Shown: one piece after another, positions 27,471-29,814 of the stretch
How the letters are laid out: every line of letters begins with the position of its first letter
How positions within the stretch are numbered: the stretch's first letter is position 1
Origin: a virus
Lineage: Duplodnaviria > Heunggongvirae > Uroviricota > Caudoviricetes
Length of the DNA: 30,882 bases
IMG/VR virus record: IMGVR_UViG_3300044858_003749
Reading direction: 5' to 3' (one strand)
Made by a program: the position numbers and the translations under genes
Notes under the pieces: model-generated
The model's input: only the letters and a program-made list of their open reading frames with translations
Told to the model about the DNA's origin: nothing
The model's database searches: none

Positions 27471-27661
27471 TGCAAGGGTTTGAATCTGCAAAAGTACAAG
27501 GAAAAATAAACAGAGACGAACTGAATAATATTATCCGTAAGTATAAAAAGGCTAAAAAATACATGAGATCCGGCGTCTTTGCTATTAAGACAATGGACGG
27601 AACCGAGGAATATATTTCCTCTCTTATGAATGAATCAAATGATCCCTCGCTTGTGAACTAA
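27470..27661 (+). CDS. small hypothetical protein
   Basis: ATG 27470 with TAATG overlaps on both sides. Confidence 0.65.
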   Translation: MQGFESAKVQGKINRDELNNIIRKYKKAKKYMRSGVFAIKTMDGTEEYISSLMNESNDPSLVN

Positions 27662-27987
27662 TGGGTAAGCATTATCTACTGAATCTCTATGGTTGCCAAT
27701 TTCATTCCTTGAATGATTTGAATTTTATTACTCAACTATTAAAGGATGCCGCCATCTTATGCGAGGCGACTATTCTTAATGTTGCCACACATCAATTTGA
27801 TCCATATGGGGTTACGGTAGTTTTAATGCTCGCAGAATCACACATAAGCATTCATACATGGCCCGATAAAGGAACCGCCGCATGTGATGTTTATACTTGT
27901 TCACAAACAGATCCTAAGATTGGTTGTGATTTTATTATAGAGAAGTTAAAACCTTCTAATTACGAACTGACTTTCATTCAGAGGTGA
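27661..27987 (+). CDS. speD: S-adenosylmethionine decarboxylase proenzyme
   Basis: GKHYLLNLYGC, HQFDPYGVT, LAESHISIHTWP (E-S self-cleavage site), DVYTC. Confidence 0.95.
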   Translation: MGKHYLLNLYGCQFHSLNDLNFITQLLKDAAILCEATILNVATHQFDPYGVTVVLMLAESHISIHTWPDKGTAACDVYTCSQTDPKIGCDFIIEKLKPSNYELTFIQR

Positions 27988-28043
27988 GTCAGTTCGTAAA
28001 CTGTCCACACATTACGACAACTCTCGGCTGTATGTGATATACT
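27988..28043 (+). promoter_or_regulatory. early promoter with upstream box driving the riboswitch leader
   Basis: GTCA-N10-TGTCCAC (27988-28008); TGa-TATACT 28035-28043. Confidence 0.7.
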
Positions 28044-28069
28044 GGTAGAAAGCTAAGAGATTAGCTTCA

Positions 28070-28120
28070 TCCGTTGACTGGAATTCTCCAGTGGAAGTAG
28101 TCTTATGACGAAGCAACGCG
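28070..28120 (+). ncRNA. glutamine-I riboswitch (glnA RNA motif)
   Basis: P1 CGTTG/CAACG, P2 CTGGA-ATTC-TCCAG, junction TGGAAGTA, P3 GTC-TTAT-GAC, GAAG, 3' CAACGCG; matches the glnA aptamer architecture. Confidence 0.85.
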
Positions 28121-28148
28121 AAATTCCACTTTCAATTAGGAGAAAACC

Positions 28149-28250
28149 ATGAAACCAACTTTCGTTCATATTATCAAAAATAAAATTCGTAAGGAAGCTC
28201 TTATTAAAAATAGTCAATACGAAATGGCCAAGAAATCACAAATTTGTTGA
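28149..28250 (+). CDS. 33-aa basic peptide downstream of the glutamine riboswitch (MKPTFVHIIKNKIRKEALIKNSQYEMAKKSQIC)
   Basis: AGGAGA SD 28138-28143, ATG 28149, TGA 28248-28250; absent from the ORF track. Confidence 0.7.
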   Translation: MKPTFVHIIKNKIRKEALIKNSQYEMAKKSQIC

Positions 28251-28324
28251 TTATATTAGTGGTTTATTTTTTGATTTGCATGAGAATTTCTCAATCAGCC
28301 CTAAATTAAAGTTTTTGAATCGTT

Positions 28325-28579
28325 ATGAGTAATTATGATCTAGCAGAAAATCACAACACACCACCAGAAACCTTAGAACGGCTGGCTAATGGTGGTAATG
28401 CTAATCTTCGTTGGCTTGTTGCATTTAATCCCAACACACCACCAGAAGCCTTAGAACGTCTGGCGAATGATGAGGATTCAGAAATTCGTTATGAGGTTGC
28501 AAATAATATTAACACACCACAATACATCAAAGATTATCTAAAAATCAAGGAGTTTCTGAATCGTTATGAGCAATTATGA
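28325..28579 (+). CDS. LRV/HEAT-like repeat protein D (2 repeats plus caps)
   Basis: MSNYDLA N-cap; PQYIKDYLKIKEFLNRYE C-cap. Confidence 0.85.
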   Translation: MSNYDLAENHNTPPETLERLANGGNANLRWLVAFNPNTPPEALERLANDEDSEIRYEVANNINTPQYIKDYLKIKEFLNRYEQL

Positions 28580-28892
28580 TCTAGCAAGAAATCCCAACAC
28601 ACCACCAGAAACATTAGCGCGGCTAGCTACTGATAAGGATTATAACGTTCGTCGTGAGGTTGCAAGAAATCCCAACACACCAATAGAAATCTTAGAACGT
28701 CTGGCTAATGATGAGCATCTGCATGTTCGTTGTTGGGTTGCATTGAATCCCAACACATCGACAGAAATCTTAGAACGTCTTGCTAATGATAACGATTTTT
28801 GGGTTCGTAGCAGTGTTGAATTAAATCCCAACACACCACAATACATTAAAACTTATTTCAAAATTAAAAGAATATTACGTTGTTATGAATAA
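28566..28892 (+). CDS. LRV/HEAT-like repeat protein E (3 repeats plus caps)
   Basis: MSNYDLA N-cap; PQYIKTYFKIKRILRCYE C-cap. Confidence 0.85.
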   Translation: MSNYDLARNPNTPPETLARLATDKDYNVRREVARNPNTPIEILERLANDEHLHVRCWVALNPNTSTEILERLANDNDFWVRSSVELNPNTPQYIKTYFKIKRILRCYE

Positions 28893-29127
28893 GAAAAAAA
28901 CATTATTACTTATAGATAGCTTACAGAATTTATTAGATGTATTAAGAGAAGAGCTAACAGAAAATGATATTACTCCAGCAGATAATAAGATATCCATAAA
29001 TGATCTTTTATCACGAGATATTTCTAAAGAAATAGAATATGCTGAAGAAGGAGTTGATGGCCCGGATATATTATTGAATAGTGAAGAAGAAAGAAAATTT
29101 TACGAAAGATTTAACTTAGGAGAGTAA
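28885..29127 (+). CDS. small acidic hypothetical protein upstream of thyX
   Basis: 8-nt ATGAATAA overlap with E. Confidence 0.65.
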   Translation: MNKKKTLLLIDSLQNLLDVLREELTENDITPADNKISINDLLSRDISKEIEYAEEGVDGPDILLNSEEERKFYERFNLGE

Positions 29128-29130
29128 CTT

Positions 29131-29814
29131 ATGAGACCCGATGTAAAACTTATAGCCATAACTCAGGGGGCAGGAGATCTTGTCAATAAAAATGCACAAG
29201 AGGTTATTTCTTATGTCGCTAGAGTTAGTAATCCAAATAATCAGCTAAATTTTGATACAGCTAGCGGACTCATTAGATACTGTATTAAAAATAAACATGT
29301 AAGCATTTTTGAACATTCTTATATGACGCTGGAGATCAATACAACCAGAGCGATTGCGGCTCAAATTTTGCGCCATAGATCCTTTTGTTATCAAGAATGG
29401 TCCCAAAGATATTCTGATGTAAATTCTTTAACAGAAACGATAGTGGTTCCAGAACTTCGTAGGCAAGACACTAAGAACCGACAAAATTCTATTGACGATC
29501 TTGATAAGGAAGTTAAGCAGTCTTTTGAAGATGAAATTAAAGATTATTTCAAACAAGGACAAGAACTTTATAATTCGCTTCTTGATAATGAAGTCGCAAA
29601 GGAATCAGCACGTTTTATTTTGCCGTTAGCAACACCAACAAGAATTTATATGACGGGCAATGTTCGTTCTTGGATGACATATATCGCTCTTAGAGAGAAA
29701 AATGGTACACAGAAAGAGCACCAAGACATTGCAAAAGAATGTAAGCTCATCTTTAAAGAGCAGTTTCCAGATTGTTATGAGGCTTTAGGTGGGGGCGAAG
29801 AATGGACTATCTAG
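29131..29814 (+). CDS. thyX: FAD-dependent thymidylate synthase
   Basis: ARVSN, SIFEH, QILRHRSFCYQEWSQRY (RHRx7S motif), ESARFILP, GNVRSW, QKEH. Confidence 0.95.
   Translation: MRPDVKLIAITQGAGDLVNKNAQEVISYVARVSNPNNQLNFDTASGLIRYCIKNKHVSIFEHSYMTLEINTTRAIAAQILRHRSFCYQEWSQRYSDVNSLTETIVVPELRRQDTKNRQNSIDDLDKEVKQSFEDEIKDYFKQGQELYNSLLDNEVAKESARFILPLATPTRIYMTGNVRSWMTYIALREKNGTQKEHQDIAKECKLIFKEQFPDCYEALGGGEEWTI

Follow-up and report, generated by a model that had tools for sequence, protein, structure and literature searches.

A phage-borne glutamine riboswitch lies on the + strand of the window, by which we mean the whole stretch of 30,882 nucleotides analysed here, part of a virus record of 99,981 bases (~100 kb). 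In our reading it is probably a working riboswitch, which turns translation on by means of a mutually exclusive fold and drives the expression of a 33-aa peptide. Neither the riboswitch class nor its ON logic is new, and T4-like cyanophages were known to carry it, so the gain is incremental, and the window provides a solid, fairly ordinary example. What is new here is that the riboswitch-associated 33-aa peptide is defined as a conserved family. Cyanophages attach a host-type glutamine sensor to conserved micro-proteins of their own, and in many lineages the 33-aa one has stayed next to speD. With its promoter, sensor and 33-codon gene in about 200 nt, the unit makes a compact test case for the viral reading of host nitrogen state, and its mutually exclusive OFF fold, as predicted, would lend itself better to mutational tests than the tertiary linchpin mechanism that the class is assumed to use.

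The glutamine-I (glnA-type) aptamer occupies positions 28070-28122 (+). The preliminary description had recognised a phage-borne glutamine riboswitch here and suggested the Rfam covariance model as a check; that search upholds it, RF01739 covering 28070-28122 over all 53 model positions with 43.8 bits, against a gathering score (GA) of 35 (E = 1.4e-6). The match is far beyond chance. It is the sole Rfam match in the window and, according to a second scan of the whole record, the sole copy in the 100 kb. Stems P1 (28072-28076/28114-28118, +), P2 (28078-28082/28087-28091, +) and P3 (28100-28102/28107-28109, +) are accompanied by both conserved junction strings, GGAAGUAG at 28093-28100 and GAAG.AACGC at 28110-28119, and the linchpin C is position 28119 (+). 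When the 53-mer is folded alone, the three-stem junction is its minimum free energy structure (-14.7 kcal/mol). Among seven related leaders, aligned and judged by eye, P1 covaries, its closing pair changing from G-C to C-G in L147, and P3 occurs as GUC/GAC, GCC/GGC, UCC/GGA and UCCA/UGGA, variants that were counted by eye in this small set. As far as sequence and predicted structure go, the aptamer is confirmed as a type-1 glutamine riboswitch, and is a predicted sensor of L-glutamine.

Downstream of the aptamer is a gene for a lysine-rich peptide of 33 aa (28149-28250, +, with its ATG at 28149). The product contains 8 Lys/Arg and 2 Glu, giving a net charge of about +6, and carries the signature of its family, an N-terminal MK..F together with a C-terminal MAKKxQI. 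Homologues were sought by aptamer patterns in IMG/VR and the JGI metagenomes, together with a degenerate pattern for the C-terminal motif, and homologues of the same length were found in L002, L135-137, L139/148, L141/144, L143/145/146 and L147. A profile of eight members, run against 1.84 billion representative proteins, retrieved 24 clusters at E<=1e-3, of which 21 are 30-42 aa long. The three longer ones (58-85 aa) are, judging by N-terminal back-reading, ORF calls extended backwards across the riboswitch, as the DNA of L199 confirms for P0010. Contigs encoding several of the 24 clusters supplied further lineages, for a total of 13 diverged phage lineages with DNA. The nearest relatives of the window peptide are P0005 and P0015, with 73% and 61% amino acid identity, respectively.

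Within the family pairwise dN/dS ranges from 0.04 to 0.7, with synonymous sites near or at saturation; it is below 1 in all pairs whose synonymous change is unsaturated, and length is nearly fixed at about 33 aa. By these measures the ORF is a real gene under purifying selection. The 33-aa basic peptide that had been proposed to start at 28149 thus holds up in 13 lineages, and the reading of 28149-28250 as a non-coding sRNA is rejected on the strength of dN/dS and length conservation. M1, F5, K10, K15 and the C-terminal M-A-K-K-x-Q-I are invariant in the first eight members; in the alignment of 26 members M26 is the sole invariant column, followed by K15, A27, K28 and Q31 with a conservation of 90% or more. 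From the latter alignment AlphaFold2 predicts a single alpha-helix over residues 3-30 (pLDDT 88.7). Sequence searches of Pfam, NCBIfam, PHROGs and the PDB found no relative of the peptide, and tblastn against 50,697 phage records returned nothing at E up to 10, meaning that no isolated phage there has a detectable copy. The DNA pattern for the C-terminal motif had 49 hits in 185,579 prokaryote genomes, all of them by chance and none in a matching 33-aa ORF. The family has so far been found on phage-like contigs only, cellular genomes being covered by this narrow motif test.

Sensor and peptide occur together. An RF01739 match lies upstream of the peptide in 12 of the 13 lineages with DNA; it exceeds the gathering score in eight (the window, L135, L199, L002, L147, L141, L143 and L237) and reaches 31-34 bits in four (L139, L233, L239 and L241); none was detected upstream of the peptide in L235. 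L235 (1291-1602) and L236 represent a lineage in which a pair of YRG and 33-aa ORFs lies between speD and thyX with no detectable glutamine aptamer, and in which the switch appears to have been lost. Synteny in the relatives is also conserved, running DUF6433, speD, riboswitch/peptide unit, (DUF7219) and thyX. The corresponding order in the window, all on the + strand, is DUF6433 (26632), two small ORFs, speD (AdoMet decarboxylase, 27661-27987), the riboswitch unit, the LRV-repeat genes D and E (28325-28892), an 80-aa ORF (28885-29127) and thyX (29131-29814). ThyX is nearest to those of Synechococcus phages (66.8% aa identity to DSL-LC03), and the only matches to speD DNA are Synechococcus myoviruses. 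PhotoRC-II RNA (RF01717; 65 and 56 bits) is found at L136:54-149 (-) and L199:1219-1314 (+), about 1-2 kb from the riboswitch unit, which identifies both relatives as cyanophage fragments. The riboswitch would thus reside in the genome of a T4-like freshwater cyanomyovirus, within a leader of early type.

The peptide gene has a partner in part of the family. In six lineages (L139, L141, L143, L233, L235 and L239) the 33-aa ORF is the second cistron after a YRG peptide ORF, and its start overlaps the YRG stop by ATGA or TGATG, which points to translational coupling. The upstream YRG peptide gives sub-threshold matches to DUF4278, with E from 1e-4 to 4e-3. Loci with coupled pairs are L141:4745-4977, L143:568-824, L139:935-1197, L233:1346-1608 and L237:1501-1751. 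At L237 the 33-aa ORF has an ATGA overlap at its 3' end with a different YRG-containing ORF of 50 aa, which has no Pfam hit; a similar overlapping ORF of 51 aa lies just past the 33-aa stop in L002, and a YRG-type reading frame can be seen downstream of the 33-aa ORF in the printed sequence of L147. In the window clade (the window, L135 and L199, with P0005 and P0015 added from gene maps) the peptide stands alone without a YRG partner, and no DUF4278 was found anywhere in the 100-kb window record. Tandem variant glutamine aptamers scoring below the Rfam cut-off (26-34 bits) are found at L233:1089-1345, L239:1101-1345 and L139:807-906. In L233 and L239 an insert of some 150 nt, which includes a 50-codon ORF, occupies the P2 position of the second aptamer, and the 3' half lacks GGAAGUAG.

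Upstream of the aptamer, a consensus scan places a candidate sigma-70-like promoter at 28014-28043 (+; ACGACA-18-TATACT, 9/12 matches with TG). Its TG-extended -10 agrees with the promoter of the preliminary description, but the -35, ACGACA, is weak, and promoter-like matches are no commoner than in shuffled sequence (7 found vs 4.6 expected). Transcription would start near 28050. The promoters of relatives, read from the sequence by eye, are stronger and lie just 5' of the aptamer (TTGACA-17-TAAAAT in L002 and L141, and the sigma-70-like TTGAAA-17-CATAAT in L135, which sits within the final speD codons). At L135:1060-1150 and L199:50-137 the speD stop TGA is inside the 5' strand of aptamer stem P1.

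The leader of the window phage carries a further element, the 5' hairpin at 28050-28067 (+), with a perfect 7-bp stem and a GAGA (GNRA) loop, present exactly as first described. Its folding energy is -6.5 kcal/mol (z -2.47), and 4 of 200 shuffles fold equally well, which makes it mildly unusual when taken alone. It is kept in both predicted folds of the leader. Compared by sequence, L002, L135, L141, L143, L147 and L199 have no such hairpin, their aptamers beginning a few nt past the promoter or overlapping the speD stop codon. The 82-nt spacer that contains promoter and hairpin (27988-28069) has no second copy in the phage record, and most of it is missing, like the hairpin, from all relatives with DNA. 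The hairpin is an add-on leader element private to the window phage, possibly acting as a stabiliser of the 5' terminus of the mRNA.

A translational ON switch is likely the best reading of this leader. No intrinsic terminator was found between aptamer and ORF, nor anything terminator-like in 27600-28900, so control should be translational; a transcription-terminator platform was considered and rejected for want of a terminator-like site. The translational platform has two predicted parts. The switching segment lies within the aptamer at 28084-28096 (+) and consists of UUCUCC, from the P2 loop and 3' strand, which is the anti-SD, and AGUGGAA (28090-28096), which spans the last two nucleotides of P2 (28090-28091) as well as junction/core nucleotides. 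In the alternative pairing, 28084-28089 form 6 bp with 28139-28144 of the Shine-Dalgarno sequence AGGAGAA (28138-28144, +), which lies 4 nt 5' of ATG 28149, and 28090-28096 form 7 bp with the anti-aptamer element UUCCACU in the linker (28124-28130, +). This pairing had been proposed in the preliminary description, and the ViennaRNA minimum free energy fold of the leader reproduces it exactly, at -20.3 kcal/mol vs -16.0 kcal/mol with P1 enforced, so that the SD-sequestering fold lies 4.3 kcal/mol below the P1-enforced one. The SD has a pairing probability of at least 0.99 in the free ensemble. With the aptamer locked, i.e. barred from outside pairing, the predicted opening energy of the SD falls from 5.09 to 1.52 kcal/mol and the probability that it is unpaired goes from 0.0003 up to 0.084. 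Even then the SD is partly covered by a weak local hairpin: UUC..CU/AG..GAA (28124-30 with 28138-44) survives P1 enforcement, with an SD pairing probability of 0.34-0.77. Ligand binding would have to contribute 4.3 to 5.8 kcal/mol, near the top of the range expected of a glutamine aptamer of low affinity.

Control sequences temper the case for the long fold. When the 18-nt linker is shuffled, 27% of the shuffles match or exceed the energy gap, and in 72% the SD remains paired to the aptamer; only 8% of 87 foreign linkers yield an equally large gap, and the folding z-score of the whole leader is -1.41. Support for the proposed OFF fold is therefore moderate, given that 27% of linker shuffles match it. 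L135 is predicted to form the same two-part helix (-16.1 vs -11.5 kcal/mol). Between the window and L135 the pair 28092:28128 changes from U-A to C-G and the pair 28091:28129 from G-C to G-U; since the linker CCGU of L135 and L199 is opposite GCGG, the change at 28092:28128 is compensatory. Locking the aptamer of L135 brought no predicted gain in SD accessibility. The SD of L199, the third member of the window clade, pairs with a different aptamer segment, P3. L002 folds into the aptamer and a local hairpin beside the SD, not into the long anti-SD fold, and the linkers of L141, L143 and L147, read by eye, are homologous to that of L002 and complementary in the same way. The long anti-SD fold occurs only within the window clade; the other branch of the peptide family (L002, L141 and L147) lacks it. 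The alternative fold of the preliminary description thus stands as the minimum free energy structure, retained in L135, but it is neither exceptional among linker shuffles nor shared by the other family branch. Its ON platform is favoured by the missing terminator and by an SD predicted to be hidden in the free leader and largely freed in the locked one, but it carries the same reservation about the shuffles. The elements it had listed for 28048-28250, namely hairpin, alternative pairing, SD and 33-codon ORF, are all in place.

The model that we consider probable builds on the observed identity of the aptamer, coding selection, synteny and association; from these we infer a ligand response, a direction of switching, a start site and a peptide function. 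The sigma-70-like promoter (28014-43) would start the mRNA, whose first nucleotides would form the GNRA hairpin and be followed by the aptamer. With glutamine absent, 28084-28096 would pair with the linker at 28124-30 and the SD at 28139-44, destroying P2 and the binding core and hiding the ribosome site. With host glutamine high, the ligand would hold P1, P2 and P3 and pull the anti-SD into P2, and the 33-aa peptide would be translated.

How the SD is hidden was compared across 89 non-redundant phage glutamine-riboswitch units drawn from IMG/VR loci L001-L118. In 75 of the 89 it pairs with the linker starting at the linchpin C, and the helix, read by eye, covaries (CACCU/AGGGUG, CACUU/AAGUG, CAUCU/AGAUG and CACUC/GAGUG). 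Pairing with aptamer-internal nucleotides is found in 4/89 units, including the window and L135. As so few units hide the SD inside the aptamer, the platform of the window is atypical, and it may plausibly be a more classical, mutually exclusive variant. The same comparison gives rise to a different account, with the same riboswitch and the same ON logic, in which the OFF element would be a short helix 3' of P1 with the SD, melted via the linchpin, and the long pairing would be incidental. Such masking of the RBS by a short helix, as seen in the 75 units, is what Klahn et al. propose for gifB (PMC6212724); in the window, moreover, the local hairpin 28124-30/28138-44 persists when P1 is enforced, and the long fold is not significant against shuffles. 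The local helix of the window has, however, only five interrupted pairs and begins 5 nt past the linchpin C28119, so that melting via the linchpin is not obviously transmitted to it. The 13-bp alternative, the minimum free energy fold, is also much the stronger of the two, and L135 retains the long fold with a compensatory change. We regard this account as unlikely and retain the mutually exclusive fold as our reading of the window.

Two further explanations do away with the switch or with the peptide as its main output. If the aptamer were a decayed relic that does not bind glutamine, the peptide would be expressed constitutively. A U at 28092, where C is usual, adjoins the conserved core, and the aptamers of L139, L233, L239 and L241 are sub-threshold at 31-34 bits, with none detected in L235; yet the window aptamer scores above the curated cut-off with its three stems and both junction strings intact, and U at 28092 is a minority variant that is seen in 11 of the 89 phage aptamers. 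Decay of this kind is very improbable. It is somewhat easier to imagine, though still improbable, that the main regulated output is LRV D/E (28325-28892) or mRNA stability, with the short ORF mainly a leader. Neither a terminator nor a + strand promoter was predicted between the peptide stop (28250) and 28325, a stretch with no significant structure, and LRV D (ATG 28325) has no visible SD; read-through from the peptide unit into LRV D/E may occur. Against LRV D/E as the principal output stand the purifying selection and fixed length of the peptide in 13 lineages, and the relatives, whose unit, read by eye, ends in an intrinsic terminator (L135, L139, L141, L143, L199 and L237). In these the terminator is followed by a conserved small gene, the homologue of 28885-29127 in the window, and LRV genes are missing from this position; on the P0015 contig the peptide is followed by an 83-aa gene and then thyX. 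The absence of LRV genes and the presence of a terminator in the relatives indicate that D and E are a recent insertion into an older stand-alone unit. A riboswitch that responds to glutamine, with the 33-aa peptide as its product, remains our preferred reading.

What the peptide does is a question for which its resemblance to IF7, the small protein known from glutamine synthetase control, had been invoked on account of the segment HIIKNK. The IF7-like domain (R..LM....IK[NK]RQQ..L.R.A.E.GL) does contain a string, I-K-N-R-Q-Q, of the kind invoked, but homology is rejected. Aligned by hhalign, 32 family members and six IF7-like domains (five IF17 proteins from a DUF4278 search of 61 cyanobacterial genomes, and P0025 from a sequence search) gave a probability of 0.13% over one aligned column, and HIIKNK has a histidine that varies within the family. 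GS binding by IF7 depends on three conserved arginines (PMC6316151); among 26 members of the peptide family no column that is at least 90% conserved is Arg, and where the window has R14 other members have K or L. Searches of the 33-aa peptides for DUF4278 and other Pfam domains had no hit at E up to 10 for the window and up to 1 for four relatives. A complex prediction with Synechocystis GlnA and the peptide alignment scored 0.00, which amounts to no verdict.

A peptide family that nearly always follows a glutamine riboswitch between speD and thyX, and that in other lineages is coupled to a YRG ORF, would most likely be a glutamine-induced effector whose action is on the nitrogen or polyamine physiology of the host. 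A role related to nitrogen is hinted at by context alone, namely the predicted induction by glutamine, the basic charge and the DUF4278-like neighbours. A bolder proposal, which we think doubtful, is that the peptide is a phage-specific regulator of host nitrogen assimilation, induced by glutamine, that stands in for the IF7-like half of IF17 and in many phages acts alongside a DUF4278 half encoded separately (a "split IF17"), and that the micro-proteins of the 89 units form an unrecognised class of viral effectors. If true, the fixed place of the cassette beside speD would mean that the glutamine pool of the host is what the phage ties its polyamine and nitrogen flux to.

Among known systems, the closest is the glutamine riboswitch of gifB (IF17) in Synechocystis sp. 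PCC 6803, for which experiments showed ON switching and masking of the RBS was proposed as the model (PMC6212724). The window shares with that leader the aptamer family, a position in the 5' UTR, some 30 nt ahead of the start codon for a small basic protein, the absence of a terminator and, as predicted here, a translational ON logic in which glutamine relieves RBS masking. Unlike gifB, the window unit is phage-borne and its product is not a DUF4278/IF17 protein, its predicted anti-SD lies within P2 and is joined by a second anti-aptamer helix in place of a short helix attached to P1, and the leader has the extra 5' GNRA hairpin. Both the glnA motif and a short-ORF cousin of it were described in 2010 (Weinberg et al., PMC2864571), and glutamine riboswitches have been reported in T4-like cyanophages and pelagimyophages (PMC9964418, PMC9602691, PMC9004378). 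Those cases resemble ours in that a T4-like genome carries RF01739, close to thyX in the case of Melnitz, and in that a link to host nitrogen is presumed. In these papers the RNA is listed or tied to ssrA, thyX or lysis, and the downstream micro-ORFs are not described, whereas here the regulated gene is defined as a conserved peptide family. The literature searched yielded no paper on phage DUF4278 peptides or on riboswitch-controlled micro-proteins.

The Glutamine-II / Downstream-peptide riboswitch of marine picocyanobacteria (RF01704) likewise places a glutamine aptamer before very short, basic, conserved peptides. It is found with DUF4278 IF17-like peptides, and relatives of the window carry DUF4278-like YRG peptides in the same operon; RF01704 is, however, a pseudoknot, whereas the window aptamer is a three-stem junction, and the window peptide has neither a YRG motif nor a DUF4278 match. 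With IF7 (gifA), which is made when nitrogen is plentiful, the peptide has in common that it is small and strongly basic, and in the relatives the order of the DUF4278-like ORF and then the 33-aa ORF mirrors the domain order of IF17, DUF4278 and then IF7-like. It differs from IF7/IF17 in lacking a sequence relationship and a conserved arginine, and is predicted to form one stable helix.

The ORF downstream of the riboswitch in the 89 phage units is always short (median 45 aa, 99% at or below 70 aa) and always has a net positive charge (median +7). At least six unrelated peptide families can be distinguished among these ORFs: GTSGY..STNNW of 64 aa (18 units), YRG/DUF4278-like (17 units), WC[FY]K of 32 aa (16 units), KNITS..RLQ of 50 aa (11 units), YITDNP of 49 aa (3 units) and the 33-aa family of the window (3 units).
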